Origin: Acidobacteriota bacterium | GTDB taxonomy: Bacteria > Acidobacteriota > UBA6911 > RPQK01 > JAJDTT01 | Direction: 5' to 3' | DNA length: 64,000 nt | Assembly (NCBI GenBank): GCA_965209055.1 | Contig: OZ242374.1 | Location: 2,464,001 to 2,528,000 of the forward strand | Shown here: positions 35,269-62,469 of the stretch, piece by piece | Layout of the letters: the number at the start of each line of letters is the position of its first letter | Numbering within the stretch: the stretch's first letter is position 1 | The notes under the pieces: generated by a model | The model's input: the letters and a program-made list of their open reading frames with translations, nothing else | The model's database searches: none | What the model was told of the DNA's origin: nothing | Translations under genes and position numbers: made by a program

Positions 35269-35478
35269 GGGCTCAATTCTATGCGCCTTCCTGGGACTTC
35301 GTCACGAACGAAATGTGAGAAATAGACGAATTTCGGGAATTCGGCGATTGGAATGCCGCCGCTCCGGGTTCTTTCGATGGCAACACGGCGCCGGAAAGGA
35401 AAATGGTGGGCCTAAGTACTACCGAAAAACAATCTTAAGTAATTGATTTCAAAGAAAAAATGGAATCTATCTTTGTTA

Positions 35479-35502
35479 CGTTGCCCCCATCGTTGCCCCC
35501 AT
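35479..35502. repeat. Tandem CGTTGCCCCCAT x2, probable integrase arm-type sites
   Basis: Matches TGCCCCCA repeats at 62261-62290 inside the other island end. Confidence 0.65.
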
Positions 35503-35784
35503 ACGATCAATTGTCACTGCCGATCGCGACCTGTTAGGTCGCCCGTTGGGCCAAATCATCTCCGCCTGCGCCAGCACGGTCCGCGTCACTTTTCCTGTCT
35601 ATCCGGTGGTTAGCCATGTTACCGCACAATGTGCGTAATGGGCACGCACAAATGCGCTGGCGAGTTTTCTCGCAGCATCCGGTCGATGGTGACGGTGTTG
35701 CGATTGGAAATCCGTTACTCTGTCCAGATGAGCTACTGGCGTGATCCTTTAGTTTCAACAGGTTATCCTGATACACGCCTCTAA

Positions 35785-36640
35785 TCATCGCCCCTTGTTT
35801 CCTACCTGTTGCCTGCCTGTAGCCTGTTGCGTATGTGAGTCTTCGTTAGCCTGTGCCTCCCGAATGCTGGCAAGCGCGTGCGAACTGACGTACCCCGCAT
35901 AGCGCATCGTCGTGCTGATCGTCGATTGGCCCATCAGCTTCTGCACCCTCCTCACGTCCACCCTCTGTATCAGCCAATGGCTGCACCGGAATCACCTCAG
36001 ATCGTGAAATCCGACCTTCAATCCCACCCGGTCGGCGGCTCGCCGTAGCGGCTTGTCGGGATTCACTAATCTCATGCGTGTCCGGGTGTTGACGAAGACG
36101 GATGGGGTGTTCAGGTGCCGGGGGAGCCCCGACAGGCATCCGGTAGCGTACTGCGAGAGCGGAATCTCTCTCGGCTCGCCGTCCTCGGTGAATTCCACCC
36201 AGAGTAATTTGCGAACCAAATCCGCCCGTGCCAGGTGAGCGACAACGCTTCGCCGTTTGGAATCCCAGTCTCGACAATCACTGCTACCATGGCTTGCAGG
36301 TAGCGATTGTCGACCGCGTCGACCAAGTCGCGGAACTGTTGAACCGTTAAAGGCCGGAAGATCTTTTTGGCCTCCTTCAGTTTGGGGAACCAAACCAGCG
36401 GGTGCGTGTCCACTGCCCCGCACTCCAGCGCGTGGAAAAACAGCTTGCTGATGGCGGTGGTGCCGCGGTTCACCGTGGCCGGTTGGGCTTGTTTATTCCT
36501 CAGTGCGACGTGGTGGTGCAAAACTTTGCGTAGGAACTCCTTCAGGGGAGTGTTCCCCAGCATGGTGTAGAGGCTCTTGAACGATAGCGCATAGCCCCGT
36601 CAGGAGCGCATGCGAGGTTTGCAGTGTTCCCTTAACCTCT
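35785..36640 (-). pseudogene. Degraded tyrosine recombinase
   Basis: ATVNR, ETG...GEAL.LTW, FHDLR followed by TGA, then QKLMGQSTISTTMRYA; split across frames. Confidence 0.8.
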
Positions 36641-36767
36641 CCGGCGAACCATGCTTTGCGGTCCAGACGGACTTAGTGGGTTCACGAAATCGCGGTTTGC
36701 GGATCATATAAGACAAAGGGGCTGGCAAGCGCAGTTCGGATCTACGTAATGCCAGCGGTCAAACGAC

Positions 36768-37274
36768 ATGATTCCATTCGCAAAGAGACCGGCCGATATC
36801 AGCGCCAAAGCCATCGACGATTACGGGTGCTTGGTCCTCAAGGTCGCCTATAGTTATGTCCCGAACCCGAACCCGGACCAGGCCCAAGAGATCCTCCAGG
36901 AGACCTTCCTCCGCTTCCACACCGCTTGCACTCGCGGAAAGGTAATCGCCTATTCCACGGCATGGCTCTGTCGAGTGGCGACCAACGTCGCCTTCAAGGC
37001 GCGTCGCCGGCAGCGAGCGATGCTTGCCATAGAAGAGGACACTGCGGTGGAAGCCAACGCCAGCAGAGACGTGGAGCGTCACTTGCTCATGGACCGGGTG
37101 CGCGACTTGGCAGCCGATTTGCCCGAGCGCCAGCGAACCGTCTTTGCCCTGCGCAACTTTGAGGGATGGACCTTCGCCGAAATTGCTGCGCAACTGGAGG
37201 GCAGCGAGAGTGCGGCAAGGTCCAGCGAGTACAAAGCACGGAGGAAGATCCGAGCTTGGATGAGAACCGTCTGA
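36768..37274 (+). CDS. ECF RNA polymerase sigma factor
   Basis: AQEILQETFL, AWLCRVATN (region 2); LPERQRTVFALR..EG..FAEIA (region 4). Confidence 0.85.
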   Translation: MIPFAKRPADISAKAIDDYGCLVLKVAYSYVPNPNPDQAQEILQETFLRFHTACTRGKVIAYSTAWLCRVATNVAFKARRRQRAMLAIEEDTAVEANASRDVERHLLMDRVRDLAADLPERQRTVFALRNFEGWTFAEIAAQLEGSESAARSSEYKARRKIRAWMRTV

Positions 37275-37287
37275 GAGGACCAGAACA

Positions 37288-37720
37288 ATGGACAGAATTG
37301 GTTTTGAGAGGAGATTGGGCGATTACGTGCGGGGCGAGGTGCCGGATGCGGTCGCGCGGGAAATCGATGACTACCTGGCCGCTCACCCGGAGGCGGTTGA
37401 CGATGTCGAGGCTGTACGCACCATACTGGAACTGAGTATTGACATCGGCGCCACGGAGCCACCCGCCCAGCTCCTGGCAGCCGCACGCGCCAGCACGCTA
37501 AAGGCGATTCGCTCGGAGAGCGAGCCACAGTAGCGGCCGAGATCTTGCCCTATGGCTGCCACGGGCAGCCTGGAATAAGGCGATTGCAATCGTTCTGGCT
37601 CCCGTATTCCTAGATGTCTTCTGGCGCGGAGCCTCCACTCCAGCTTGGGCACGCGTAGTCGAAGAAGTGCGCAAGCTCTCTCCGGTGCACACGGTGGACT
37701 GCTTCCGTGGGAAAAAGTGA
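37288..37720 (+). pseudogene. Anti-sigma factor, truncated
   Basis: N-terminal anti-sigma-like helix (LGDYVRGEV...IDDYL); TAG at 37531-37533; a hydrophobic segment and AWARVVEEVRKL continue in another frame. Confidence 0.55.
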
Positions 37721-38309
37721 GAGTGGGTGCCGGTGAAGCACTAGATTAAGGCTCGGCATTTTTGCCGCGCCGGAATCTCTTCAATACGCCATCTGCGGAG
37801 AAGGTGTCGGCAATGCCGTTGATGTCGGCCGTTCAGGCATTCACCCCGGCCTGATTCGAGCAGCGTCAGGATTGGCTGGCTCACTACCCGCTAGGCGGGA
37901 CCTGTTTCTCATCTACCGGCATCGGATCCTGGGCTTGTTCAGAGCTAGAAGATTGAATCTAGCAAGAGGTTGACGCGGGCCATGTAGCCTTACGAGGGGA
38001 GGGACGGCCGTCGAGAAAGCGGACCGGGCTCGGGAGGCCCTCAGGGGCGCCGTAGGCAGCAGCCCCACAGTCGGATCTGCTCCGCCTCCTGAGGACGAGA
38101 AGTAGGCGTCCCGTCACGAGGAGGAACCTGTGTACCTGAGCCCGGCGGCCCTCGAATATTCCTTGAGATGCAACCACCAATAGCGCCGTGACGACCGGCA
38201 GCAGAAGAATCCACTTCACGGAATAGGGTTTCCTCAGCCTTCAGTTGTGAGAGGCAGAGTCCCGTTGAGGGTTCAGTGTCCCCTCACCATGGCTTGGCCG
38301 GTGGTCGCG

Positions 38310-38513
38310 GTCTCGGTATTGCTGTTTCAACAGTCCCAGATTCAGCCGTCCGGTCTCGCGGTCCAGATTGGACACCGGTTCGTCCGTGAGGATCAGACTC
38401 GGTTCCATGATGAACGCCCGGGCAATGGAAATCCGTTACCGTTGACCGCCCGAGAGCTGCGTGGCCCTCCGGTAGAGATGCTCTTCCGCCAGTTCAACCT
38501 GATCCTGAATCAT
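38310..38513 (-). pseudogene. ABC ATPase fragment
   Basis: [32 protein letters not shown]: signature and Walker B with an in-frame stop at 38436-38438. Confidence 0.7.
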
Positions 38514-38672
38514 GCCGGCCCGGCGGCGGTGGTGGGTCGGGAACCCGCCCAGCAGGCCGCGCTAGCGCAAGTTGGAAAACTGGGACAGGGTTCCGCAAAG
38601 AACGTTCCCCAAGACAGTTTCCCGTCAGACGCTGACACTGAACCAGATTCCCGTTGTTTCTACTCCCCTAGG

Positions 38673-38811
38673 GTGTCCGATATCGGACACTGAATCCCAA
38701 AACCGGACATCCGAAGTGTCCATCGCCGCAACTAAGATTCTCTTGGGATTCTCTAAGGTATTGCAATATAAAGAGATATACGAATGTCTCAGGATTGGCA
38801 CACTGATTGCT
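38673..38811 (+). promoter_or_regulatory. Sigma54 promoter with upstream activator palindrome
   Basis: TTGGCACACTGATTGCT (-24/-12) at 38795-38811; perfect palindrome GTGTCCGATATCGGACAC at 38673-38690. Confidence 0.85.
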
Positions 38812-38850
38812 TGGATGTTTCACATGAGGAACAACCAAGAAGGGGGTGTG

Positions 38851-40188
38851 ATGATGTCCAAGATCCTGATGGCCGCATTTTCCGTCCTCATCGTTAGTAG
38901 CGCTTGCTACGACAAACAGCAGATTTCGTGGAGCCGGAGTGGCGAGTTCGAGTGGCGGCATGGACCGCGTACCGTCTTTGTGAAGCATCTTGGTGAAATC
39001 GGGTTCGCAGACAATGACGAAGACGTGCTGCGAGTTTCCACTGGGGGGTACCTGTTCATCCAGGAATCGGCACTTTTGGACTCAAGGAGTATGGAATTCA
39101 CTCGCCAGCCGGACGGCTCGGTCGGTCGTCGGTTCGTCGTCAATGGCGAGGAGACAGCCGTGGACCGGGATGCAAGGGAGTGGCTGGCGCGAATGCTTCC
39201 GGAGATTTTGAGGCGGACCGGCATCAACGCCAGCGAAAGAGCGACGCGAATTCTTGATCGCCAAGGATTTGAGGCCCTATTTGCAGAAGTGCGCCTGATG
39301 CCCAGAGATACCGACCGGGTCCGTTATCTTCAGGAAGCGATCGAGTCAGGGGGCCTAACCGAGGACCAAAAGCTACGGATTGTCCACGATGTGGCGACTA
39401 CGTTTTTTATGCCCGACTCCAAGAAGTCGGCAGTGCTTTCAGACTGGGCTCACAAATACAGCGAAGTCGAGCTTCTGGCCGGTCTCTTGAAAGCAGGAGA
39501 AACCATTGGTGCCGACAGCATCAAAGCACGCTTTGTACTCAGTCTCATCGAGCTGCATTGCGGTTCGGCAGAAAAGATGGGAATGATCCTCAATTCGGTG
39601 AAGGGAATTGGATCGGACTCACACAAGGAGAAGGTGCTTGGTGTGGCCACGGACTGTCTATCCCAAGACGATCACTTTCGAGAAGCATTCTTCGATTCTC
39701 TGAACAGTATCCTTTCGGACAGTCATAAGTCGAGTGTGCTGCGCAGGGTCGTCGAAAAATCTGCCGTTACTCCGGTCTCATCGAGTGTTGCCCGGAGCGC
39801 CGAGTTGGGCAAACAACTCGGCGCTAATGAGACTGTGGCGTCGGCACGAGTCAATGGAACCCATGACGTTTACATCGAAGATCCGGGGGTCAGTAAAGAA
39901 TTCTATGGGGCAGTGGACCGAATTGGCTCGAACAGTATTCGGGCGAGTGTTCTCTTGGCAGTTGTACGCCAGTCCGCTTTAGGAAAGACGACCCTCTTGC
40001 GAGTCATCGAATCTGCCGAGTGCCTTCTGAACGATTCCATCAAGGCGGATGTGCTGACGCAGATCGCTCACGTCGCCAGCGACGACGCTGAGGTTTCGAT
40101 GCGAATTCGACAGGCCGCCGAAACGATTGGGTCCAGTCATCTCTTCCGCACGGTTTTGTCGCAACTCGAAGCGAACTCGTCGAGGTAA
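38851..40188 (+). CDS. Exported (possible lipoprotein) helical-repeat protein
   Basis: Signal ending SSAC; about 8 repeats of IxSDSxKxxVL. Confidence 0.7.
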   Translation: MMSKILMAAFSVLIVSSACYDKQQISWSRSGEFEWRHGPRTVFVKHLGEIGFADNDEDVLRVSTGGYLFIQESALLDSRSMEFTRQPDGSVGRRFVVNGEETAVDRDAREWLARMLPEILRRTGINASERATRILDRQGFEALFAEVRLMPRDTDRVRYLQEAIESGGLTEDQKLRIVHDVATTFFMPDSKKSAVLSDWAHKYSEVELLAGLLKAGETIGADSIKARFVLSLIELHCGSAEKMGMILNSVKGIGSDSHKEKVLGVATDCLSQDDHFREAFFDSLNSILSDSHKSSVLRRVVEKSAVTPVSSSVARSAELGKQLGANETVASARVNGTHDVYIEDPGVSKEFYGAVDRIGSNSIRASVLLAVVRQSALGKTTLLRVIESAECLLNDSIKADVLTQIAHVASDDAEVSMRIRQAAETIGSSHLFRTVLSQLEANSSR

Positions 40189-41042
40189 AAAAATGGAATG
40201 GAAGGGATTCGACGTCATTAAGCTGAACTGTTGGAAATTCGGATCAGTAGTCGGTGGCACATCATGAGAAATTTTCTTGAGAGTTCTCCCTTGAGCATAG
40301 GCGCCTTGGCTTTTCTGATTGGTCTTCTTCTTTTCCAAAGAGCCGAAGAGTTTGATCAACATCATAGTCATCATTCCTCTAATTCTCCCCTGACGGACCT
40401 GTTAGAACTGGAGACCCCGTTCGCAGAGACTATGCTCAAAACTCAGGATGGAGCTGGGTTGGAGTTGTTAGATCGTTGGACGTTTCTAATATACTCAGGT
40501 GCTCTGGACGAGCGTGGTTTCGACTATCCTGCCGTTTTGCTGAACCGGTACCATAAACGTGGGCTTAATTTTGTGTACGTTATGCCCTCAGCTAGTAACC
40601 CTGCCTGGCTACGATCCGTTTCAAGTTCTCTTAATGGCAGAGCACAAGGCTTTTCTATCGCTTTAGACGAGAGGGGAACGTTTGCAGAGTTGTTAGGTGT
40701 TCCGCGCGGCAGTCATGAGACATATACGGTTTTCGTAGGACCCGACACCCGAGTCAGGTTTGCTGTCCGGAAGAGTCTCCCATCAGATGTCATGCGCCAA
40801 CTCGTAGAACGCAATATTTTGGGGACGATAGACTACAGTCCTCCTTCTCCTCCTCCGGGCTATGTTGTTGGTTCACCGGTCCCCGAAATCGCTGTGCGCA
40901 ATGCCAGGACAGGGAGATCCATTCCTTTATCTACGCTTCTACAAGGACAAGGAACAGTATTGTTCTACCGTGCCAATTGCACGTCGTGCGGGATCGAATC
41001 TGAGATTCACAGACTCGCTACACTGGAAAGAACGGGAATTAA

Positions 41043-42231
41043 GGAAGGTCTGAACAAGTCGATTCAAGGGACGTGAGAGCCGTTATTGTTTCGGCTTTGC
41101 GGTGTCCAAACCTTCATTATGAGGAGTACCACCCTGGCAAGGCTCTGGGTGCCCCCATTCTCAGACTGATTCCCCGAATCTCGACGCACCTCTCCCGCGC
41201 CCGGATCAGGCGTTCACGCCAGAGCGCTCGGCGATCATCAGATTGGCGAACCCCACCAGCAAATAGATCCGTTGGGTGTTTTTCGCCAGCCCCCGGTAGC
41301 GCACCTTCGCGTAGCCGAAATGCCGTTTCAGGTACCCGAATACATGTTCTGCCTTGGCCCGAACCGACGCTTTGCGCCGCTCGGCCAACGCCGCCTCACT
41401 CTCCGGTGGCAGCCGCCAACGCTTCCCCGGCTTCATCATCACCTGCCAATCCACCGGCCGATCTCGATTCTCCGACCGCTTTCCCACTCCCTGGTATCCC
41501 GAATCCCCCCAAACTTGAGACTCCGAGCCGTGCAGCAACTCACCGGCTCGCGTCACGTCATGCTCGTTAGCCGGCGCCGTCACCACCGTGTGCGCCACCC
41601 CCGTCTGGGCGTCCACCCCCAGGTGGGCCTTCATTCCGAAATACCACTGTTTTCCCTTCTTCGTCTGATGCATCTCCGGGTCCCGCGCCCCCTCCCTGTT
41701 CTTGGTCGAGGAAGGCGCCGCCAGGATACTCGCGTCCACGATCGTCCCCCGGCTCAGCCGCAGGCCTTGCCGCTGCAGGTGAGAACCGATCTCCTCGAAC
41801 AGCGCCTCCCCCAGACCATGCTCCTCCAGCCGATGACGGAATTTCAGAATCGTCGTCTCGTCCGGCAGCGGCCCCGTGAGCTTCAGGCCCACGAACCGCC
41901 GCACCGACTCCACCTCATAGAGCAGATCCTCCATCCCCGGATCGCTCAGGTTGTAAAACAGCTGCACGCAGTGGATCCGAAGCATCGTCGAGAGCGGGTA
42001 GGGACGCCGTCCCCGTCCCGCTTTCGGGTAAACGGGCCGAATCCGGGCTTCCAACTGCTCCCATGGAATCAACCGGTCCATCCGGGCCAGAAATCTCTCC
42101 CGACGGGTCACCCGCTTCTTGCCGTCGTATTCCAGATCTGCGAACGTTCGTTGCGACATCATCTATCCTCCATGCAGTGATGATGGAAGAATTATCGTGC
42201 AGAACGCTGACTCGACTTAATCAGACCTTCC
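41043..42231 (-). mobile_element. IS5 family insertion sequence (1189 bp)
   Basis: IRs GGAAGGTCTGAACAAGTCGA / GGAAGGTCTGATTAAGTCGA (18/20); TTAA target duplication at 41039-41042 and 42232-42235. Confidence 0.95.
41206..42162 (-). CDS. IS5 family transposase
   Basis: PDETTILKFRH, IVDASI, YFGMKAH, GDSGYQG, RAKAEHVF, RYRGLAKN. Confidence 0.95.
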   Translation of the reverse strand: MMSQRTFADLEYDGKKRVTRRERFLARMDRLIPWEQLEARIRPVYPKAGRGRRPYPLSTMLRIHCVQLFYNLSDPGMEDLLYEVESVRRFVGLKLTGPLPDETTILKFRHRLEEHGLGEALFEEIGSHLQRQGLRLSRGTIVDASILAAPSSTKNREGARDPEMHQTKKGKQWYFGMKAHLGVDAQTGVAHTVVTAPANEHDVTRAGELLHGSESQVWGDSGYQGVGKRSENRDRPVDWQVMMKPGKRWRLPPESEAALAERRKASVRAKAEHVFGYLKRHFGYAKVRYRGLAKNTQRIYLLVGFANLMIAERSGVNA

Positions 42232-42576
42232 TTAACATAGCCGAGCTGAAAACCTATGCCATTTTCAGTTACAGCTATTCGTGGCTAGACTTTAAGAGTG
42301 CCGCCGCGCGGTCGGGCGTTTCGTCTGAGATATACGTAGCAACTCATCTTATAACGGAATGGGAAGATCCGTATCGAACTGCGACTGAGCTTAATAGGCC
42401 CATGGCAATAGAAATCGTAGACAACTACATCGCTAAATCTACACCCCTGCCAACATGGATGTCAGCGAAAATCGCAGGCCACAGACAACGGACGTCGGTT
42501 GTCGCGCAACCAGGTCGAATCGGTGAAGACAGATGATTCGTAATCGAATTGAGTTACGGCCGACGTATCAACGTGG

Positions 42577-43620
42577 GTGGGCTCATACCGTAACAATGAG
42601 TTAGGAGATACCATGCTCGGATTCCTGTTAATGTCTGCCACCATTGTATTTTCAGTCGGAGTGCTGGGAGCTTCATCGAGTGCCTCGACGGTAAGTTCAA
42701 TCGGTATAGAATCAATGTGTGCTGGCGACTTGTTCGCTTGGACTGGGGCGATTCAGAAATTCCAATCTGGACTGCTTGTGCTCGATCAGACAAATCACAG
42801 AATTGTTGTTGTGGGCAATGATGGAACAGCCAAGAATCAGTTCGGGGAGATCGGTCAAGGATACGGGGATCTATTGTTTCCTGAGGCGTTAGCGACGGAC
42901 ACTCATGGGCGCATTTATGTTGTGGACCATGGAAGTTCCTTTATCAAGATTCTTAACGTCGATGGCCAACCGATCACGAGATTTCCTATCGACACTTTCG
43001 TTGATAGCGTGACAGTAAATAGCCGTGGGCACATTCTCGCCAACACACCAAGAAAGGGAAGAATCGTTACCGTATATTCTTTTGACGGGGCTGAGATCAC
43101 GCGCTTTGGGGGACTGATGCCTCTAGATCTGGCGTATCCGGATCAAAACAATGAAGGCAATACAGAACACTGGACAATTCCACTGTCACGGGCGCATGTA
43201 GCAGTTGGTCCAGAAGACGAGATATATGTTGTCTTTAGACATGTGCCGATTGTCCGGAAATACTCCTCTTCAGCTAAGTTATTGTGGGAACACCGCATGA
43301 TGGGAGGGCCGATAGATTCACTCGTGAAGACATTTTGGTCGGAACCCGACTCCATACCTACCACGTCCGCCCGTAACGTGGATGGAGTTCAGTTGAGCAA
43401 CATAGTTATGGACGTTAGTCTGAGCGGTCACGATAATCTGGTGGTCTTGCTTGCTAATGGCGCCTTGTGCGCAATTGATCCTGAGGGGCGTCAGTTGTTA
43501 CTAGCCAAGCTTACGGGCGCCGCTCCACGTGTATATCGCAGTATAACAATCGTCCGGAACTCGTTGGTTCTGGTCGATAGGAGCACATGTTATCGCAGCA
43601 CAACACCCATCGAATTCTGA
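42577..43620 (+). CDS. Exported NHL-repeat / 6-bladed beta-propeller protein
   Basis: Signal peptide; FGEIGQGYGDLLFPEALATDTHGRIYVVD NHL unit; the start could be 42613. Confidence 0.8.
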   Translation: MGSYRNNELGDTMLGFLLMSATIVFSVGVLGASSSASTVSSIGIESMCAGDLFAWTGAIQKFQSGLLVLDQTNHRIVVVGNDGTAKNQFGEIGQGYGDLLFPEALATDTHGRIYVVDHGSSFIKILNVDGQPITRFPIDTFVDSVTVNSRGHILANTPRKGRIVTVYSFDGAEITRFGGLMPLDLAYPDQNNEGNTEHWTIPLSRAHVAVGPEDEIYVVFRHVPIVRKYSSSAKLLWEHRMMGGPIDSLVKTFWSEPDSIPTTSARNVDGVQLSNIVMDVSLSGHDNLVVLLANGALCAIDPEGRQLLLAKLTGAAPRVYRSITIVRNSLVLVDRSTCYRSTTPIEF

Positions 43621-43742
43621 CGTAGTACCGTCTCCCATGAGGAGAAAATATGAAGATCAAGGATGCTGTTGCTAGAAGTCCCCCGCCCTCGCTATGGATA
43701 GAGAGGTTTATCATTCATGCTTTGACGAAGGAGGATAAGATC

Positions 43743-43955
43743 ATGTATTCCATTCCGCGAAAACTGGGAACTGTTTCGTATCTGGCGGTGTGTGTATGTA
43801 TGTTGGTGGTGGGAGCCGCACGGACCAATTCTATCTTGGCTTCCTTTTGTTCTGTCAACTGTTCAGATGGCAGCAGTTGTTCAATTTCATGTAGTAATAA
43901 CGCCAATTGTGGTTGCAGTTGGTGGTCGGGCGCCTACTGTTATTGTGACAGCTAA
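43743..43955 (+). CDS. Small secreted cysteine-rich peptide (70 aa)
   Basis: Strong AAGGAGG RBS; signal peptide followed by SFCSVNCSDGSSCSISCSNNANCGCSWWSGAYCYCDS (8 Cys). Confidence 0.8.
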   Translation: MYSIPRKLGTVSYLAVCVCMLVVGAARTNSILASFCSVNCSDGSSCSISCSNNANCGCSWWSGAYCYCDS

Positions 43956-43983
43956 CGACAGCAGCACTACACCGGCATGACAG

Positions 43984-44021
43984 GTGCGGCGGCGGCGATG
44001 CATCGTTCGCCGCCGCCGCAC
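43984..44021 (+). terminator. Perfect 15-bp GC hairpin after the peptide gene (terminator or mRNA stabiliser)
   Basis: GTGCGGCGGCGGCGA-8 nt-TCGCCGCCGCCGCAC; no U-tract. Confidence 0.6.
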
Positions 44022-44085
44022 GTAGCCTAGTGTTCGCACAGGTAGCGAGTTCGGTATTTTGGTCGAAGCAACGGAGCTCGGATCC

Positions 44086-44547
44086 ATGAAGATATATCGA
44101 CGGTCTCCGATCATATTTGGTGTGCTGGCAGTAGCATTGAGTGGGGGGATAACGGTGTTGGTTATGCTCCTCCTGCAGGGTGACGGGCCACATTTGTCAT
44201 TTGATGAGAGGGTTGTCGATTTTGGCACTTTCAATCATGACAGTAAGATCGAACACAAATTCTCTTTTACAAACCGGGGCGATGCGACCCTGAAGATACT
44301 ACGTGTAGTGAGCGACTGTGGTTGCACGGTATCCACGGTAACCTCCAGGCGGTTGGCTCCGGGGGCCTCCGGAGCGATAACTGTTGCCGTCGAGCCACCA
44401 ATCAACGCTCCTGCCTATATAAATGCTCCCGAATCCGAAACTGTGTGGAGAGAGGTCCGGGTGTTCAGTAACGATCCCCAGGAACCATTGCAAGTGTTAG
44501 TGCTCAAAGGTGAGATGGATCGTCGGGATCCTTCTCTTTCTAAATGA
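44086..44547 (+). CDS. DUF1573 (Ig-like) domain membrane-anchored protein
   Basis: FTNRGDATLKI..V.SDCGCT......LAPGASG.I.V. Confidence 0.85.
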   Translation: MKIYRRSPIIFGVLAVALSGGITVLVMLLLQGDGPHLSFDERVVDFGTFNHDSKIEHKFSFTNRGDATLKILRVVSDCGCTVSTVTSRRLAPGASGAITVAVEPPINAPAYINAPESETVWREVRVFSNDPQEPLQVLVLKGEMDRRDPSLSK

Positions 44548-44574
44548 TCTGCAACCGTAATGGGAGGCTGACGA

Positions 44575-46140
44575 GTGAATATAGGTTGGGTTAAAACAGT
44601 GCTCAGGACAGGTTGGATATCGGGCTTCTGCCTGGTCGTACTGTTCGGACTTTTGGTCCGGACATACAATCTTGGTGAGGCCGGACTATCGTGCAACGAA
44701 TTCGTAACCATACTCACATCACTTCGAGAGGATAGGGAGATAGGCAGCCAATCCAATACACCGTTCACACCAATAACTCTAGATCACGCGGCGGCCACCG
44801 TTACGCCGAGCTCAGATTCCGGAATGCTCAGTGTCGCCGAAGCTGCTAGAGAGAAATGGCAGTTGCCTATGTATTTCTGGATGATGAATGGATGGATTAA
44901 ATTATTCGGAAACTCAGAATTGAGCATCAGGCTGCCTGCGGCACTTATGGGGTCCTTCTCTATCGTCCTAGTGTTTTTGATTTGCAGGCTCATTTTCGAC
45001 ATACGAGTTGCGATTCTTGCTGCTCTCTCCGTCTCCGTCCTGGCAGGTCACATTGAGTTGTCACGAGAAGCGACTTCGCATGTGTTCCTTCTGGGAGTAA
45101 TCCTAGCATCGACATTCTTGGTGCTTGTTTCATGCTTCCAGTCAGCGTCACGTGTTGCATTCGGCGCATACTTGATTACTTCGATCATTGGCATGTTTAC
45201 ACATTATCTCTATCTCCCATACGCTGCCTGTCATGTGATGATCATGCTCTATGGCCTTCGGATGCCAAAGTCACCCATTAATACACTGAAAGCATCGGTA
45301 TCCGTAATAGTATTTTTACTCGGGGTTGTTGGCGTATGCATTATGACACCCTTGTACAGTTCTACGCCATGGCAACATTTGGCACCATTGAAATCGGATA
45401 GTTACATTTACGATGTAGGTAGTGGGGCAGTGGGCGTGATATGGTCCAAGGGCCTGCCCCTTCTCGCAAACTCGTTTGACATTGTTGTCGCGATTACTCT
45501 TATTGTTGTGTCTTTTCGGCTTCTTTCCAAAAGAGAGTCCTCTGCCGTAGTCTTAGGTCTGTGGTTTGCAATACCATTGATCGTTGTTGCGGCGTTGGAT
45601 TTTACCAGTGGGACTGGATTCTTGGGATTGCCGGAATTGTGGATGATACTCGGTTTTCCCGTTCTGCTGGTCATTGCATCGGGCATGGATTGGCTGTTCA
45701 ATAAACCGCTAGGTAGGGAGGCATTGATAGTGTATCTTTCTTGTCTTACCGCTAGTGGCCTGTGGGTCCATGTCAGCGCAACGGATGGACAAGTTGACCA
45801 GCATCGGCAGTTGACGGAGTTTATTGAATCCGTCACGGATACAAATAGCGATGACATCACAATTGTAGAAGGCGGTGAAATCGCCAAGGGAGCAATCGCC
45901 TATTATGCCCGGAGAAATCTGACTATGAAGATATGGGAACCAAACACATTGATGTCACCGTCGAGTTCTGAACTTGATGAGTTTCTTTTGCCCGCTGCCA
46001 TGCGAGGTGCGAAAATTCGATTGGTCACTTTCGGGAATAGCGACGGTAACATAAGACGCCGGGTGGAAGAAGTGGGATTTCGGACCACTGGAGACGACAG
46101 GCGATTTGGCCATGTAAATGTCTATCAATATACATGGTGA
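44575..46140 (+). CDS. GT-C glycosyltransferase (ArnT/PMT, family 39-like)
   Basis: PMYFWMM..WIKLFGNSELSIRLPAALMG, many TMs, FTHY. Confidence 0.8.
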   Translation: MNIGWVKTVLRTGWISGFCLVVLFGLLVRTYNLGEAGLSCNEFVTILTSLREDREIGSQSNTPFTPITLDHAAATVTPSSDSGMLSVAEAAREKWQLPMYFWMMNGWIKLFGNSELSIRLPAALMGSFSIVLVFLICRLIFDIRVAILAALSVSVLAGHIELSREATSHVFLLGVILASTFLVLVSCFQSASRVAFGAYLITSIIGMFTHYLYLPYAACHVMIMLYGLRMPKSPINTLKASVSVIVFLLGVVGVCIMTPLYSSTPWQHLAPLKSDSYIYDVGSGAVGVIWSKGLPLLANSFDIVVAITLIVVSFRLLSKRESSAVVLGLWFAIPLIVVAALDFTSGTGFLGLPELWMILGFPVLLVIASGMDWLFNKPLGREALIVYLSCLTASGLWVHVSATDGQVDQHRQLTEFIESVTDTNSDDITIVEGGEIAKGAIAYYARRNLTMKIWEPNTLMSPSSSELDEFLLPAAMRGAKIRLVTFGNSDGNIRRRVEEVGFRTTGDDRRFGHVNVYQYTW

Positions 46141-46225
46141 TATGCCGTGCGTTCGAACGAGTCCGTTGTCCGATCACCCTGTAAGCGCAACATTCACGAG
46201 TAGGAATTTCAGGAGTAGCAGGGCC

Positions 46226-47053
46226 ATGAAAGTAAATGGAACAGTATCCCCGGAACGTAAAGTGGCGATTGTTGGGTTCGCGCCGACAACGAGGCATCAA
46301 GCACCGTTTTTCGACGATGAGTTCGAGATATGGGGGTTGAACGAATTGTACATGTTCATCCCTCGATTTGACAGGTGGTTTGAGATGCATAGGCGTGACG
46401 AATTTGAGAATAGCATAAGAAACAATCGGCACTTGGAGTGGTTGAGGAAGTGTAAGAAACCTATCTATATGCAGGAGCATTTCGATGATATTCCGGGATC
46501 GATTGAATATCCGAAGGAGCGAATGGTCAAGGCCTTTGGAAACTACTTTCGTAGCACTTTCAATTATATGCTGGCCTTGGCAATTGATGAGCAATTCACT
46601 CATATTCACCTATACGGGATTGATTTGATAAGCAAGGGTGAATACATTGAGCAGCGGCCGAGTGGAGAGTACTTTTTGGGTATAGCAAAAGGTAGAGGCA
46701 TTGAAGTCCGTGTTCCCCCCGACTCGTCCCTTCTGAGGGAGGGTGCGTATGGATACGATCAGTATACTGTGGCGGAACAATACGAGATCCGGTTAAACGA
46801 GCTGACAATTCGCAAGCGGAAACTGGAAGGTGATCTCAATCAGGTCATGGGTTCTATTGGAGAATGCCAAGGGCAAACGAAGGTTGGGGCTCCGGGTGTA
46901 TCGTCGGTTACGCAGCTACTGAAGTTGTCGTTAAGTAGTAAACTGCGGCTGAGGATCGAGGCGTTACAGGACCAGCATCGCGTCTTGGCAGCGGAACTCA
47001 ATGTTGTCCTGGGTGCAATTAATGAGTGTAAGTATTGGATGTCACGAGGATAG
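46226..47053 (+). CDS. Hypothetical protein, sialyltransferase/Maf-like fold with coiled-coil tail
   Basis: KVAIVG, IWGLN, YMLALAI....HIHLYGIDL pattern; AGGAG RBS. Confidence 0.55.
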   Translation: MKVNGTVSPERKVAIVGFAPTTRHQAPFFDDEFEIWGLNELYMFIPRFDRWFEMHRRDEFENSIRNNRHLEWLRKCKKPIYMQEHFDDIPGSIEYPKERMVKAFGNYFRSTFNYMLALAIDEQFTHIHLYGIDLISKGEYIEQRPSGEYFLGIAKGRGIEVRVPPDSSLLREGAYGYDQYTVAEQYEIRLNELTIRKRKLEGDLNQVMGSIGECQGQTKVGAPGVSSVTQLLKLSLSSKLRLRIEALQDQHRVLAAELNVVLGAINECKYWMSRG

Positions 47054-47212
47054 ATGTGCCACGTAGTCGGACGGAGTATCTGCAAAGTTGTGAGAATGAG
47101 TGAGCCAAGGATAAAATGTACGCGGCCGTATCCGGCGGGGAAAGGGAGAAACCTGACGGGGGTGGTTGCTGGTGAGGGGTATGTACACAAGTGTGAAAGG
47201 GTGAAGAGCTTG

Positions 47213-47923
47213 ATGAAACCGATTTGCGTGGTTCCGGCTAGGGGCGGGTCTAAGCGACTTCCTCGAAAGAACATAATTGAGCTGGCGGGTAAGCCATTGG
47301 TGGCGTGGGTCATTGGCGCCGCGAGGAGATCCGGCATATTTGCTCATGTATATGTTTCGACCGAAGATGACGAAATCAAGGCGGTTGCCGAGCGTTATGG
47401 CGCGGAGGTCCCGTTCCGACGACCGCGAGACTTGGCGAATGATTCGGTCAGTGCCATAAAAGCAGCTGCACATATGGCTGACACGCTACGCAAGATGGGA
47501 GAAAGGTTTGGAACAGTTTGCGTCAGTGCACCGACCGTACCGCTATTGACGGCAAGAGAGTTTTGCTTCGCCTATGAAATGTTTCGGTCGAGTGGGGCGG
47601 ATGTTCTGTACAGCGTGTGCAAGATGGAAGAGCCACCGCAGTGGGCTCTCAGGCGCAGTGGTAGATGGCTTACACCTTTATTTGACGGCGACAGTTTCGA
47701 AAAGGAGTCGCAAGACCTCGAACCTGCTTACCGAATAGTCGGAGGAATCCAGTTTTTCCGTGCGGATCATCTCAGGCGGAACAGCAATACGTACATAGCC
47801 GATAAAATGATCGGTTACGTGATTGGGCCGGAGATAGGAGTGGAAATCGACACAGCGGAGGATTTACGCAAAGCGCACTATTATCTTCAGCGGCGGGCGT
47901 CGAGGGAGATTGGGTCGATGTGA
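47213..47923 (+). CDS. Acylneuraminate cytidylyltransferase (NeuA/PseF family)
   Basis: VPARGGSKRLPRKNI, VSTED, RPRDLAND, EIDTAEDL. Confidence 0.9.
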   Translation: MKPICVVPARGGSKRLPRKNIIELAGKPLVAWVIGAARRSGIFAHVYVSTEDDEIKAVAERYGAEVPFRRPRDLANDSVSAIKAAAHMADTLRKMGERFGTVCVSAPTVPLLTAREFCFAYEMFRSSGADVLYSVCKMEEPPQWALRRSGRWLTPLFDGDSFEKESQDLEPAYRIVGGIQFFRADHLRRNSNTYIADKMIGYVIGPEIGVEIDTAEDLRKAHYYLQRRASREIGSM

Positions 47924-48071
47924 TGGAATCGCTATGGAGGCGGCGAGTCCATCTGATTTCTGGTGATGAGGGAGAACATGTGTGCTGAAGGCGAGCCTGA
48001 CCGGCGAGAGCGTGTCTAAAGCAGTTTGCTTCCTGGAGGGGGGTGAAGACGTCGGGCTGGAACCTCACACC

Positions 48072-49385
48072 CTACGCCACGGGCAACACTAGCACTGCTC
48101 TGCAGCCCGGCGCCTGCTTCCGGTTGGTCAGGCTAAGGGAGCCGCCGTGGGCTTCGGCGATCTGCCGGGCCAGGACCAGACCGATGCCACTCCCCTGGGG
48201 TTTGGTTGTGAAGAATGGGACGAACAGGTTGGCGGTGTTGGCCAGGCCTTTTCCCTCGTCCTCAACGTAGACTTCCAATTGTTCGCCGACCCGCCTCCAG
48301 CCGATGCTAGCGCCCCCTCCGGTTTCCGATGCCGCGTCAACCGCATTGTGAACCAGATTGATCAGCAACTGCTCCAATTGATCCGGGTCAGCGGGGAATA
48401 GGACCGGTGGCCCGGCGCGAACCACGACCGGCATCCGGGTCTCTAGGCCCACGACCTTCCGGACGGAGTCTTCGATGGAAACCGGGCGCTTGTCCGGGGC
48501 CGGTAACCGGGCGAGCCGGGAGTAGGCACCCATGAACCGGCTCAGAGCCTGGGCCCGCGAGGAAATGACGCGCAGACCTTCCCGCAGGTCATGTTCCCGG
48601 TCCGAATTCGAGATGTCCTGCTCCAAAATGGATTCGAGACTCCCGGCGATGGACTTGATGGGGGTCAGCGAGTTGTTCAATTCATGTCCCAAAACCCGGA
48701 TCAGCCGGCGCCAGGCCTGCCGCTCCTCCTCTCGGAGCGTCTGGTTCAAATCCGTCAGGACCACCAGGTGATGGGGCCGACCCTCCTCGCGAAACACGAT
48801 CCGGTGCATTCCCCAGCGGCCGCTCCCCCCGGGCAATTGGATTTGGAGCGTCTGGACCGGGTCTCCTTTCAAGCAGTCCTTCAGTTTCAGCTCAGCCGCT
48901 GACTTGCCCAACGCTTGGTCTCCCGGAATTCCTAGGAGTCTCTGCCCGGCTCGGTTGATGAGTCGCAGGCACCATCCGTCATCGAACGCGAAGACCGCAA
49001 CGTCGATCTCCTTCATCACCTTCTGCAGCAGGGCGGCCGCCTCGACCGCTCCCAGGCGTTGTCGCCGTAGGACCTCACCCAGAATGTTCAGTTCCGCGGC
49101 AAACTCGCCCAGTCCCTTGTCGGTCCCACTCCGGGCCCGGATGGAGAAGTCCCCTTCTCGAATCGCCGATACCACGTTGGCCAGTGTCTGAAACTGAAAC
49201 GTCAACTTCCGATACAGTAGGATCAGGCCGCCTGACAGGGCTCCCACGGCCAGCAGCGAGAGGCCGTAACGCACTCGGGGATCGTGATCGCCGGTCCAGA
49301 GCAGGACCAGTAGCGCGGCACAGGAGGGGAGGCCGGCGGCAAGAGAGATCAAGATGATCCGCGCCTGAAAGCCCAGCCGATTCAT
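48072..49385 (-). CDS. Sensor histidine kinase (TM-HAMP-PAS-HisKA-HATPase)
   Basis: HELNNSLTPI, QLLINLVHNA, DEGKG, FVPFFTTK, GSGIGL. Confidence 0.9.
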   Translation of the reverse strand: MNRLGFQARIILISLAAGLPSCAALLVLLWTGDHDPRVRYGLSLLAVGALSGGLILLYRKLTFQFQTLANVVSAIREGDFSIRARSGTDKGLGEFAAELNILGEVLRRQRLGAVEAAALLQKVMKEIDVAVFAFDDGWCLRLINRAGQRLLGIPGDQALGKSAAELKLKDCLKGDPVQTLQIQLPGGSGRWGMHRIVFREEGRPHHLVVLTDLNQTLREEERQAWRRLIRVLGHELNNSLTPIKSIAGSLESILEQDISNSDREHDLREGLRVISSRAQALSRFMGAYSRLARLPAPDKRPVSIEDSVRKVVGLETRMPVVVRAGPPVLFPADPDQLEQLLINLVHNAVDAASETGGGASIGWRRVGEQLEVYVEDEGKGLANTANLFVPFFTTKPQGSGIGLVLARQIAEAHGGSLSLTNRKQAPGCRAVLVLPVA

Positions 49386-50752
49386 AGCCCGAGTTTTTCT
49401 ATGCGCCGGTAGAGGGCGGTTCGGCTCAGCCCCAAGCTTCGAGCGGCGTGGCTCACGTTGCCGCCGACGCGGGCCAGCACCTTGCCGATCAGGACGCCTT
49501 CGGCTTCCTCCAGGGTCATCATCTCCAGCGGATTCGAATCGGGCGAGTCCGCAGGGAGGCTCAGATCCTCCACCGAAATGGAGGACTCCCGGGCAAGTAG
49601 GACGGAGCGCTCCACCACGTGACTGAGTTCCCGGACGTTTCCCGGCCACGAGTAGTGAGCCAGTGCCGCCAGTGCCGGTTCGCCGAATCCTTCCAGATTC
49701 CTCCGGTATTTCTGGTTGTATCGGCCCAGGAAGTGGTTGGCCAACAGAAGGATGTCCTCGCCCCGGTCCCGGAGTGGTGGCAGGTGGATCTCCACTGTGT
49801 TGAGACGAAACAGGAGATCCTCCCGAAACCGGCCGCGGTTCACCTCCTGCTTCAGGTCGGCGTTGGTGGCCGACAGCACCCGCACGTCAACGTTTCTGGT
49901 TCGGGAGGAGCCGACTCGCTGCATCTCTCCGCTTTCCAGGACCCGGAGGAGGTTGGCCTGTTGGCTCACGGGAATGCTGGTGACCTCGTCCAAAAGCAGC
50001 GTTCCTCCGTCGGCCAGCTCGAAGCGGCCGATTCGATCGGTACGGGCGTCGGTGAAGGCGCCCTTGACGTGGCCGAACATCTCGCTGACGAAGACACCTT
50101 CAGAGAGTCCTCCCAGATTGACGGCTACAAGAGGCATTGAGGCGCGAGCGGAGACCGAATGCAGAGTTCGGGCCACCACTTCCTTGCCGGTGCCGTGGTC
50201 TCCTGTGATCAGCACGTGGGCGTCGGAGGGTCCTACCCGGGTGATCAGATCAAGGACGGGCCGCATGACCCGCGACTGTGTGATCAGACGAACGTTTTGC
50301 CGAGAGCGTAGGACCCGGTTCTCCTCCTCCAGACGGCGGCCTAGCCGTAGCGCCCGCCGAATTTCGATCTGGCTCTTCAAGACTATGAGCAGTCGCTCGT
50401 TCTCCCAGGGTTTCGGAATGAAGTCCCGCGCACCGCGCCGCATGGCTTCCACAGCCAGGTCGATTGTGCCCCACGCGGTCATAACGACCACGCGCAGCGA
50501 GCTGTCCACCGACAGCAACTGCGTCAGAAGATCGAGTCCCTCCCGGCCCGAAGTCGTGTCCCGAGCATAGTTCATGTCCATCAGAACGACATCGAGGTCG
50601 AGACGCCGCGCGCACTCCAGGATACGGTCCGGAGTGTCGGCGGTGGTGATTTCGTAGCCCTCGCTCTTTAGCAGGAGGCGGAGGGAAAGGAGCACGTCGG
50701 CCTGATCGTCGGCGATCAGAACGCGGGGTCTTTTGGAACGGGTATTTGTCAT
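49382..50752 (-). CDS. Sigma54-dependent NtrC-family response regulator
   Basis: REC domain, GDHGTGKE, GAFTDA loop, WPGNVREL, Fis-type HTH. Confidence 0.95.
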   Translation of the reverse strand: MTNTRSKRPRVLIADDQADVLLSLRLLLKSEGYEITTADTPDRILECARRLDLDVVLMDMNYARDTTSGREGLDLLTQLLSVDSSLRVVVMTAWGTIDLAVEAMRRGARDFIPKPWENERLLIVLKSQIEIRRALRLGRRLEEENRVLRSRQNVRLITQSRVMRPVLDLITRVGPSDAHVLITGDHGTGKEVVARTLHSVSARASMPLVAVNLGGLSEGVFVSEMFGHVKGAFTDARTDRIGRFELADGGTLLLDEVTSIPVSQQANLLRVLESGEMQRVGSSRTRNVDVRVLSATNADLKQEVNRGRFREDLLFRLNTVEIHLPPLRDRGEDILLLANHFLGRYNQKYRRNLEGFGEPALAALAHYSWPGNVRELSHVVERSVLLARESSISVEDLSLPADSPDSNPLEMMTLEEAEGVLIGKVLARVGGNVSHAARSLGLSRTALYRRIEKLGL

Positions 50753-55313: not shown

Positions 55314-55340
55314 GCTGTACCTCCTTGTGCTGTACATCCT

Positions 55341-55470
55341 AGCAATCAGTGTGCCAAGTTTAGGGAAAGAGTCAAATGTATGTAATTCAATGACTTATAC
55401 GAAATCGGACATTTGAGTCCGAAACCCCGAGTGTCCGGTTCCGGGATCACGCGTCCGGTATCGGACACTT
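55341..55470 (-). promoter_or_regulatory. Sigma54 promoter with activator sites for the adaptor-ABC operon
   Basis: TTGGCACACTGATTGCT (minus strand, 55341-55357); GTCC-N-GGAC palindromes at about 55430-55468; AT-rich IHF-like stretch between. Confidence 0.85.
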
Positions 55471-57321: not shown

Positions 57322-57333
57322 GCGGAACATCTC

Positions 57334-57465
57334 AGCAATCCGTGTGCCAAGGTGGGACGAGATCTACATCTGCTGTTATGTCAATAAGATACTGGAATCC
57401 AAAACGAACGGACGCACGATCCAAGTGTCCGTTTCCGGGACAAAGTGTCCGTTATCGGACACTTT
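57334..57465 (-). promoter_or_regulatory. Sigma54 promoter with activator palindrome upstream of tolC
   Basis: TTGGCACACGGATTGCT (57334-57350); AAAGTGTCCGTTATCGGACACTTT at 57442-57465. Confidence 0.85.
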
Positions 57466-60573: not shown

Positions 60574-60781
60574 GAGGATCGCACCTCTTCCGGGAATGCG
60601 GGTCTGGAACCAGGATCTCGTGGATTGAGGATACACTCCGGAGAAAACCCCTGTTGGGATCTTCCCTGGCTGTTGGAGACGGATTCGCCGGTCGGGGAGG
60701 CCGGAACCGTCGGTGGTGGCTTCCGGGCGCGCTTCCTGGATATGATCGGTTCGCCGGTCCCCGGTGGAGAGGTGGATGGAT

Positions 60782-62392: not shown

Positions 62393-62469
<77 letters not shown>

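Follow-up and report, generated by a model that had tools for sequence, protein, structure and literature searches.

The stretch of DNA analysed here, called the window throughout, comprises 64,000 nucleotides (nt) from an Acidobacteriota bacterium (assembly GCA_965209055.1, contig OZ242374.1, positions 2,464,001 to 2,528,000), and it carries a run of forward-strand genes (38851–47923) built around a short open reading frame (ORF) for a small secreted peptide rich in cysteine. A first-pass annotation had described this run as co-oriented, low in GC content and placed 3′ of a σ54 promoter. The run, the promoter and the GC dip were all recovered, although an insertion sequence missed in that annotation interrupts the run and the foreign block starts at 40231 rather than at the promoter. 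Here, we describe the genes of the window, compare them with one related locus (L001) and propose that their core is a horizontally acquired envelope module in three parts: a Cys-rich peptide exported by Sec, a protein that joins two thioredoxin-like (Trx) domains to an NHL propeller, and a DUF1573 protein with a CGC motif. We give this proposal an even chance of being correct.

The gene for the peptide precursor (43743–43955, +) encodes 70 amino acids (aa). Its ribosome-binding site (RBS), GAAGGAGGA, stands 7 nt ahead of the ATG at 43743. The N-terminal hydrophobic segment spans residues 7–28 in a Sec-type signal peptide, and the mature part of approximately 36–44 aa holds all 8 Cys in the spacing C-x3-C-x5-C-x3-C-x5-C-x-C-x7-C-x-C; taken as residues 35–70 (36 aa), it contains 10 Ser and 4 Asn. 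The strong RBS, the signal peptide, the eight-Cys spacing and the Ser/Asn content that had been attributed to this ORF are exactly as they stand in the sequence. A further ATG upstream, at 43650, also has an RBS (GAGGAG), and a 101-aa form starting there, as in the database entry P0001, may be made instead. Cys density alone is not rare in the window, since 8 Cys within 37 aa occur in 4 of its 914 stop-to-stop frames of at least 40 aa; the ORF rises above chance because its RBS, its signal peptide and a slot conserved in the second locus combine. Directly 3′ of the stop codon lies a hairpin with a perfect, GC-rich 15-bp stem and no U-tract (43984–44021, +), whose folding (z −3.87) was equalled in none of 200 shuffles. 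Strong hairpins are often seen 3′ of precursor genes, and this one is a possible transcript stabiliser or attenuator. It was left out of the module definition because it is not conserved in L001 (z −1.06).

Neither peptide, from the window or from L001, matched any Pfam or NCBIfam model at E ≤ 10. This leaves unsupported the analogy drawn earlier with the small NVEALA proteins, whose Pfam family we take to be PF14055: the NVEALA motif is also absent from the sequence of the window peptide, and our literature search returned no mention of NVEALA. The earlier statement that no classical enzyme of ribosomally synthesized and post-translationally modified peptides (RiPPs) is present was borne out, as none was found among the module proteins with Pfam and NCBIfam, and the precursor begins with a Sec-type signal peptide rather than a RiPP leader.

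The redoxin gene upstream of the peptide is broken into two pieces. The 5′ part (40231–41042, +; likely start M12 at 40264) encodes a transmembrane anchor, the first Trx-like domain and the motif RANCTSCGI, and the 3′ part (42236–42536, +), which is in phase with it, encodes a WEDPY motif. An IS5-family element (41043–42231, −) separates the two, with a transposase gene at 41206–42162 (NF033581, 334 bits against a cutoff of 140), terminal inverted repeats that begin GGAAGGT (28-nt arms, 89%) and a 4-bp target duplication, TTAA, at 41039–41042 and 42232–42235. Once the element and one TTAA copy are removed in silico, the redoxin reads as 370 aa with no internal stop, and because the flanking pieces rejoin as one open frame, the CxxC gene was intact until a recent insertion. 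Both pieces align with the same database relative, P0007: the 5′ piece with residues 13–261 (30% identity, E 2e-40) and the 3′ piece with residues 267–321 (E 4e-10), and RANCTSCGI is identical letter for letter in the window redoxin and P0007. No Pfam or NCBIfam family recognised the window redoxin by sequence, and a PDB sequence search with its N-terminal piece gave nothing useful.

The gene that follows encodes an NHL six-bladed β-propeller with an N-terminal signal or anchor (42577–43620, +; likely start M13 at 42613). Its NHL repeat scores 25.4 bits against a cutoff of 20, while its DUF5128 match stays below the cutoff (16 bits versus 22.9). The six blades are read from the family profile, which matches solved NHL propellers in the PDB at E values down to 5.8e-43 in 3–5 matched stretches. 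An exhaustive protein search with the propeller yielded 17,133 matches at E ≤ 1e-3, the majority of which are generic NHL proteins; the relatives of the propeller include P0002 at 92% identity and fused proteins of 670–700 aa at 35–41%. The fusions were counted among the 38 matches of at most 750 aa in the 150 propeller matches listed: 8 of the 38 bear an N-terminal redoxin extension of approximately 380 aa with RAxCTxC, 7 of these 8 also contain WE[DN]P, and no match of the 38 has a fused Cys-rich tail by the measure of more than 4 Cys in 37 aa. Redoxin and NHL propeller can therefore be read as one unit, encoded by two genes in the window and by one fused gene in relatives. A plasmid collection searched with P0007 yielded 2 unrelated NHL matches that covered 28% of the query. 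One further idea for the propeller, a peptidyl-amidating lyase (PAL), was dropped: the NHL profile matches PAL at E 1.4e-4, but neither peptide ends in Gly.

The fold of the redoxin was modelled on the intact orthologue in L001 (N-terminal 370 aa, 8-row alignment). The model, with a predicted local distance difference test (pLDDT) score of 77.1, has two α/β domains and places an invariant C239-x-x-C242 at the N-terminus of helix 240–256, right after strand 231–235. Foldseek matched it to peroxiredoxins, DsbE and ResA with probability 1.00 and a TM-score to the target of up to 0.74, which assigns the modelled orthologue, rather than the broken window gene, to the thioredoxin fold. The CxxC redoxin of the first-pass annotation is thus upheld through an orthologue predicted to fold as a member of the thioredoxin superfamily, although the window gene itself belongs to no sequence family and is split. 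Across the first domain, the family profile also matches AhpC weakly, and through the propeller it matches SOQ1 (E 1.2e-9) and NHLRC2 (E 6.4e-5). According to their abstracts, SOQ1 and NHLRC2 both combine Trx-like and NHL domains, and disulfide exchange is possible for SOQ1; one preprint abstract locates the Trx-like and NHL domains of SOQ1 in the lumen, and a second preprint calls SOQ1 a lumenal methionine sulfoxide reductase in its title.

The third member of the proposed module is a DUF1573 immunoglobulin-like protein with a transmembrane anchor and the motif C87-G-C89 (44059–44547, +; likely start MKIY at 44086). It belongs to DUF1573 (PF07610) with 70.3 bits against a cutoff of 26.1. A residue at which Cys and Sec replace each other is usually redox-active. 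The window protein scored 60.5 bits with the OS_HP2 (seleno)protein model, below its cutoff of 100, and a selenoprotein form of DUF1573 with a UGC motif is tabulated in the review PMC9312934. A PDB sequence search with the DUF1573 protein gave nothing useful. A single hydrophobic segment, at the N-terminus, is present in the redoxin, the propeller, the DUF1573 protein and the peptide, which should therefore all face the periplasm.

A genome scan for related loci gave 49 pattern matches, of which one, L001, was confirmed. It is a 5.1-kb contig of a Candidatus Angelobacter metagenome-assembled genome, with a fused redoxin–NHL gene at 2414–4513 that is identical to P0008. Ninety nucleotides after the fused gene lies a 65-aa ORF with the RBS GAAGGGAG, a signal peptide ending in AMSARA and a mature part of 37 aa (residues 29–65), 10 of which are Cys. 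A third ORF, with a transmembrane anchor, begins 148 nt farther on and runs off the contig after 52 codons; its start and that of the window DUF1573 domain agree at 8 of 24 positions (pairwise E 2e-4), and we tentatively assign this gene to the DUF1573 type. The propeller stop and the start of the third gene are 436 nt apart in L001 and 438 nt apart in the window. Of the 79 L001 frames of at least 40 aa, a single one packs 10 Cys into 37 aa, and the runner-up has 6. Both peptides contain CSVN(G)C as a local element and end in Cys-x-Cys-Asp or Cys-x-x-x-Cys-Asp, and their full-length similarity (z 5.8) comes mainly from the signal peptides; from their placement, we treat them as positional equivalents. 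The first-pass annotation had named the lack of a small Cys-rich ORF in homologous clusters as grounds for giving up the peptide, and L001 has such an ORF in the same slot.

The natural pair from L001, P0008 residues 45–699 and peptide residues 29–65, was co-folded using our own thin alignments. The complex score was 0.43 (runs of 0.43, 0.48 and 0.27), as against 0.02 for the best of three controls, which the procedure grades as weak support; the partner pLDDT was about 56–62, and at least 61% of the contacts agreed between runs. The mark set for complexes is reached by 58 of 80 solved complexes and by 2 of 110 mismatched pairs, counts that are approximate given the use of our own alignments, and just 7 of those 80 complexes, but both passing mismatches, reach it with a score of 0.60 or less. 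We count the co-folding result as a small positive for a partnership of the Trx-NHL protein with the peptide. For the peptide itself, the defensin- or knottin-like fold with four disulfides suggested earlier would be a candidate structure.

The gene run is fronted by a σ54 −24/−12 element, TGGCACACTGATTGC (38796–38810, +), which is followed by a good RBS and the ATG at 38851 and contributes to a 24-nt stretch 96% identical to the site at 55334–55357. The pattern TGGCAC-N5-TTGC occurs in the window at 38796 (+), 55342 (−) and 57335 (−), three times against 0.05 expected, and none of 100 shuffles reached three. These sites front the peptide operon, an adaptor–ATPase–permease–regulator operon and a gene for a TolC-like protein. 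A perfect palindrome, GTGTCCGATATCGGACAC (38673–38690), lies 106–123 nt upstream of the first element and is a putative enhancer-binding-protein site; the palindrome GTGTCCGATAnCGGACAC stands approximately 95–125 nt upstream of each σ54 site, with three sites in the window (38673, 55451 and 57445) where 0.11 were expected. Alignment of the three promoter regions brings out the palindrome and a second common element, CCGGACA. A σ54-dependent promoter with an upstream activator site and a nearby gene for a bacterial enhancer-binding protein is thus predicted. Behind it, the first gene (38851–40188, +) encodes a 445-aa lipoprotein-like protein (N-terminus ending in LIVSSAC, hydrophobic segment 1–20) that belongs to no family in Pfam, NCBIfam, PHROGs or PADLOC and that fell into unnamed clusters only in the Atlas, with a low recognition score. 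By eye, a (G/L)-S/N-D/N-S-x-K/R-x-x-V/L-L motif recurs in it every 35–45 residues or so, which suggests a helical repeat protein.

On the other side of the run, on the reverse strand, lie the candidate regulators and the pump. A PAS histidine kinase gene (48072 to about 49380, −; the ORF as listed starts too early) adjoins the gene for an NtrC-type σ54-dependent response regulator (49382–50752, −; Sigma54_activat 205.5 bits, HTH_8), which is the likely activator of the three σ54 promoters. The best models for this two-component system, a PEP-CTERM-box response regulator, AtoC and ZraR, all stay below their cutoffs. The pump genes encode an ADOP duplicated permease (50781–53291, −; TIGR03434, 793.8 bits against 622.3; MacB_PCD, FtsX), an ATPase (53331–54029, −; ABC_tran), an HlyD-type adaptor (54060–55337, −; HlyD_3) and a TolC-like outer-membrane protein (55585–57330, −; OEP), with σ54 sites at 55342–55356 and 57335–57349 and palindromes at 55451–55468 and 57445–57462. 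ADOP is an acidobacterial family, which would indicate a host of that phylum, in line with the source of L001; by domain content the four proteins form a MacB-type tripartite pump with an ADOP permease. Shortly before the σ54 promoter of the peptide operon, and divergent from it, stands what is left of a second ABC ATPase gene (38310–38462, −). It shows 41% aa identity (E 1.3e-10) to residues 147–197 of the ATPase encoded at 53331–54029 and has a stop codon right after its LSGGQR signature, and a 52-nt DNA repeat (77%) links both ATPase genes. Searching 35300–38850 by tblastn with the ATPase, integrase, adaptor and ADOP proteins recovered this ATPase remnant only; integrase fragments suspected at 35846–36563 received no support.

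Genes for sugar-related enzymes follow the DUF1573 gene. The first encodes a GT-C glycosyltransferase (PMT_2, PF13231; 44575–46140, +) with at least 7 transmembrane-like segments, which scored 46.7 bits against 26.1 and had no PDB match by sequence; the earlier calls of a GT-C enzyme, an NHL propeller and a DUF1573 protein with CGC all stand, each above its Pfam cutoff. Next comes a 311-aa ORF (46118–47053, +) for a cytoplasmic protein with a GT42 sialyltransferase-like or MptE-like fold and a C-terminal coiled-coil hairpin. Its start is probably M37 (46226), because the 95%-identical relative P0152 has 275 aa. It had no Pfam match at E ≤ 10 and nothing useful in a PDB sequence search; all of its 335 homologues are uncharacterised, and its relatives are mostly phage proteins without annotation. 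When the family profile was compared with the PDB, the top 9 matches were all GT42 sialyltransferases at E 0.02–0.14. The model (pLDDT 87) is closest to Cst-II and Cst-I (E 1.3e-5, probability 1.00, TM-score 0.40–0.50, identity 14–19%), and GT29 sialyltransferases and MptE-type folds rank next. The earlier description of this protein as sialyltransferase-like thus holds at the level of the fold, although the profile E values are marginal. In a phage collection, the search with this protein found one gene, at 3905–4708 of Microcystis phage PP496355.1 (L002), at 35% identity; this copy is labelled a methyltransferase and lies directly ahead of the terminase genes, which is uninformative. The last gene encodes a CMP-sugar-forming (cytidine monophosphate) cytidylyltransferase closest to the PseF, NeuA and KdsB types (47054–47923, +; likely start M54 at 47213). 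The NeuA-like enzyme proposed earlier is confirmed as a PF02348 protein (76.7 bits versus 22.6) but falls short of PseF membership (TIGR03584, 175.7 bits against a cutoff of 205.7). Judged by their sequences and folds, the GT42-like protein and the cytidylyltransferase would make a coherent cytoplasmic pair. L001 ends before the position where sugar genes would appear, so they are tied to the peptide by adjacency in one locus only. None of 5 module proteins matched PHROGs.

Base composition sets the block apart. In 1-kb windows over 39001–48000, GC ranges from 0.475 to 0.546, against approximately 0.57–0.67 in the flanks, and the single exception in the dip, 41001–42000 at 0.612, is the insertion sequence. 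GC at third codon positions (GC3) is 0.46–0.57 from the redoxin gene to the cytidylyltransferase gene and 0.66–0.82 in the pump, regulator and host genes. The first gene, at 38851–40188, is intermediate (0.62), which is why we place the start of the foreign block at 40231 and not at the promoter. On a larger scale, an integrase gene of the P4 type (60980–62251, −; Phage_int_M, Arm-DNA-bind_3, Phage_integrase) lies beside a tRNA-Ile(GAU) gene (62393–62469, −) at the right end of what appears to be an island. A putative left attachment repeat (35393–35417) agrees with 62382–62406 at 21 of 25 positions, and its exact core of 14 nt is the 3′ end of the tRNA-Ile; a 14-nt exact match by itself is not rare at such a scale, and its weight comes from the position at the tRNA end and the adjoining integrase. 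Together, the 25-nt repeat and the integrase suggest a tRNA-Ile genomic island of approximately 27 kb that contains an ECF (extracytoplasmic function) sigma gene, the peptide module, the two-component system and the pump. The term mobile locus, used earlier for this region, is therefore a reasonable one at two levels, the whole island and the low-GC block of foreign GC3 inside it. The simplest history would have the low-GC module inserted behind an existing member of the σ54 regulon of the island.

Several other features of the window were recorded. The ECF sigma factor gene (36768–37274, +) lies in the island upstream of the peptide operon and is followed by a small ORF in anti-sigma position (37288–37533). 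An Rfam scan of the window found two tRNAs and nothing else; one of them, tRNA-Leu(UAA) at 60782–60868 (+), found by ARAGORN and by Rfam (55.4 bits), lies inside an ORF at 58609–60990 (−) with ArdC-N and MPTase-PolyVal domains, the 5′ part of which is probably over-called. An inverted repeat at 58206–58317 has 34-nt arms (79% complementary) and a 44-nt spacer and contains a C/G homopolymer run. The ORF at 10941–14432 (−) encodes a restriction-modification enzyme of a Type ISP/IIG-like kind, in which a Type ISP C-terminal specificity domain is combined with N6_Mtase and Eco57I methylase domains. The host part also holds tandem PhoD-like phosphatase genes (1663–3252 and 3253–4851, −) and a gene for a Ser/Thr kinase with TPR repeats (16008–18353). 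PADLOC matched none of 8 proteins and thus gave no sign of a known defence system.

From these observations, we propose the following course of events. The module would have landed downstream of a σ54-driven gene in the tRNA-Ile island. The peptide precursor would cross the inner membrane through Sec and lose its signal peptide, after which the propeller and the Cys-less Trx-like domain may hold the peptide while the CxxC domain and the CGC of the DUF1573 protein exchange thiols and disulfides with its 8 Cys, whether by oxidation, isomerisation or reduction. Because the activator palindrome is common to both, the peptide operon and the pump are probably induced together, the likely switch being the adjacent NtrC-type two-component system. 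More recently, the IS5 insertion has split the redoxin gene, most likely leaving the module impaired here. Co-transcription of the genes, binding, redox chemistry, export by the pump and the roles of the sugar genes are all steps that we infer from the arrangement.

A number of points weigh against this proposal. Folds of the TlpA, ResA and peroxiredoxin kinds usually belong to periplasmic reductants, and the resemblance of the redoxin folds to them means that oxidative folding is not implied. Expression of the peptide ORF is a prediction from its sequence. Searches for peptide homologues, with the window peptide alone and with a two-peptide profile (2 and then 5 candidates), returned its own entry only. 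The mature peptides of the window and L001 are not significantly similar (z 1.9; 102 of 2000 shuffles score as well), and their Cys frameworks differ, with 8 Cys in the window and 10 in L001 at other spacings. Pfam does not recognise the 52-aa fragment of the third L001 ORF as DUF1573. The whole comparison comprises two loci, the window and L001, and the L001 contig ends early. In the complex prediction, which the first-pass annotation had proposed for the peptide and its propeller and which separates from its control, a pass in the score band obtained is more likely to be false than true unless the pairing had a high prior probability. The module is probably impaired in this genome, because the redoxin is lost and polarity on the downstream genes is likely, and it may not function here at all. 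The link to the pump is also weaker than the three σ54 sites had made the MacAB-TolC-like exporter under the same promoter type appear: the GC3 of the module differs from that of the pump and regulator genes, which indicates separate origins, the σ54 promoter has the 445-aa gene of intermediate GC3 as its native first gene, with the ATPase remnant just ahead of it, and L001 has no significant σ54 site (9 loose matches against 6.2 expected), so the connection may be an accident of insertion.

The best-surviving alternative takes the peptide as a periplasmic thiol buffer or carrier, metallothionein-like or oxidant-scavenging, that is kept reduced or recycled by the Trx-like and DUF1573 proteins, while the σ54 two-component system and the pump would make up a regulon for envelope stress or metal detoxification. 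The closest folds to the redoxin are peroxiredoxins and the reductant-type DsbE and ResA, DUF1573 has selenoprotein forms, and a buffer for metals or thiols would tolerate the variable Cys spacing of the two peptides more readily than a fixed disulfide fold would. Among others, ZraR and ZraS score next best for the regulator and the kinase, and ZraSR controls a periplasmic metal-binding chaperone; the regulator matches, however, are all far below the family cutoffs. The profile match to SOQ1 likewise leads to a lumenal Trx-like/NHL protein that a preprint title names a methionine sulfoxide reductase. Nevertheless, the searches with the module proteins turned up no domain for metal transport or metal sensing, the connection to the pump may be a coincidence, and the present data fit a reduced and an oxidised peptide alike. 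We regard the buffer as unlikely.

Less probable again, and in our view doubtful as a whole, is a complete production line in which the peptide is also glycosylated in the periplasm by the GT-C enzyme with a nonulosonic-acid-type sugar, which the cytidylyltransferase would activate and the GT42-like transferase would handle, and expelled across the outer membrane by the ADOP/MacB-type pump as a bacteriocin- or signal-like product. The genes run in one direction and stand close together in a single low-GC3 block, the GT42-like fold adjoins a CMP-sugar synthetase as a coherent pair, the GT-C enzyme is membrane-embedded by its transmembrane-like segments, and the strong hairpin 3′ of the peptide gene is precursor-like. 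The σ54 site and the palindrome are common to the pump genes, and in the text available from the review PMC5985334, MacAB-TolC exports STII, which is translocated by Sec and folded by Dsb, from the periplasm. Since MacB-type pumps can take STII from the periplasm, export of the peptide by the pump is mechanistically conceivable. As to the glycosylation proposed earlier, adjacency at a single locus is what links the sugar genes to the peptide, Ser-richness is not conserved (10 Ser in the window peptide against 2 in that of L001) and most members of the GT42-like family are phage proteins without annotation. Moreover, a scan of the module ORFs and 36 other long ORFs of the window revealed neither a nonulosonate synthase nor any further gene for sugar biosynthesis. 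GT-C enzymes use lipid-linked donors and GT42 enzymes cytoplasmic CMP-sugars, and they may thus have different substrates. The pump, finally, has host-like GC3 and the module does not, and the σ54 site is missing from L001.

The remaining alternative, that the small ORFs are not genes and that coincidental Cys-rich frames lie beside general envelope redox proteins of the Trx-NHL and DUF1573 types, can draw on the missing homologues, the non-significant similarity of the mature parts and the fact that 3 of the 4 Cys-dense window frames lie outside the peptide ORF, but we consider it very improbable given that both ORFs combine a strong, correctly spaced Shine–Dalgarno sequence with an n-h-c signal peptide and an A-x-A-type site, have Cys only after that site, and lie between genes of the same two types, in a slot of about 437 nt, where an untranslated spacer of that length would be unusual in an otherwise tightly packed operon.

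We return to the proposal of a three-part envelope module. In our reading, the triad of a peptide with thiol-redox proteins is rare and undescribed. The literature search found no description of such a module, with subscription journals largely outside its coverage; it returned no paper that pairs DUF1573 with the term cysteine-rich and none on DUF1573 in such a module, a query combining NHL, thioredoxin-like, cysteine-rich peptide and periplasm found the arrangement not described, and nothing specific was found for ADOP. A far more general claim would be that Acidobacteria carry a whole class of ribosomal, Sec-exported, hypervariable multi-disulfide peptides with a Trx-Trx-NHL clamp or catalyst and a DUF1573 partner bearing CGC or UGC, wired in this island to a σ54 two-component switch and to an ADOP pump that ejects the product; we think this improbable. 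DUF1573 is a large family without an assigned function, some members of which contain selenocysteine, and the Trx-NHL proteins SOQ1 and NHLRC2 are biologically important, with no physiological substrate named in their abstracts. The triad offers a concrete substrate hypothesis for Trx-NHL and DUF1573 proteins and, through the common promoter elements, a weaker one for ADOP. To our knowledge, the ADOP permeases are abundant acidobacterial paralogues with no known cargo. If true, the more general claim would give a first substrate-level function to DUF1573 and to the orphan ADOP permeases of Acidobacteria. Neither peptide has a database relative, and small, fast-diverging secreted peptides of this phylum would escape homology-based genome mining. 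The weight of all this is limited by the number of loci, two, and by the insertion sequence that breaks the window copy.

Several known systems resemble parts of the locus. Plant SOQ1 and human NHLRC2 likewise combine a Trx-like domain with an NHL propeller of six blades, placed on the side of a membrane that faces away from the cytoplasm. The protein described here differs from them in having two Trx-fold domains, with CxxC in the second only (CTSC in the window), and in being bacterial, anchored by an N-terminal transmembrane segment and split into two genes in the window; the abstracts on SOQ1 and NHLRC2 describe neither a small Cys-rich partner nor a DUF1573 neighbour. The sugar genes recall the pairing known for the GT42 enzymes Cst-I and Cst-II, since a GT42-like fold is followed by a PseF/NeuA-type cytidylyltransferase in the window; the window pair departs from it in the extra C-terminal coiled-coil hairpin, the low TM-score, the cytidylyltransferase score below the PseF cutoff and the mostly phage-borne relatives. 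In the STII route of E. coli, as in the window, a small Cys peptide with a Sec signal is combined with a MacB-type pump, which here has common promoter elements. STII has two disulfide bonds (four Cys) and the window peptide 8 Cys, a comparison made without the STII sequence; STII depends on the housekeeping Dsb system, whereas the window locus has dedicated redox proteins and an ADOP-type permease, with export as a predicted step.

Two further kinds of locus can be compared. In the NVEALA/DUF5128/DUF1573 neighbourhoods of Bacteroidota, as described in the first-pass annotation, a DUF1573 protein and a six-bladed propeller likewise adjoin a small exported protein, although the window peptide has neither an NVEALA match nor the motif, and its propeller stays below the DUF5128 cutoff. 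Bacteriocin loci can carry thiol-disulfide oxidoreductases of their own, as with BdbA/BdbB for sublancin and PedC for pediocin; such systems are Gram-positive and use double-glycine or other leaders and ABC exporters. The window locus is like them in that the gene for a secreted Cys peptide travels with a dedicated disulfide enzyme, and unlike them in its Sec signal peptide, its Trx-NHL and DUF1573 proteins and its diderm host, with no immunity gene or leader peptidase identified.

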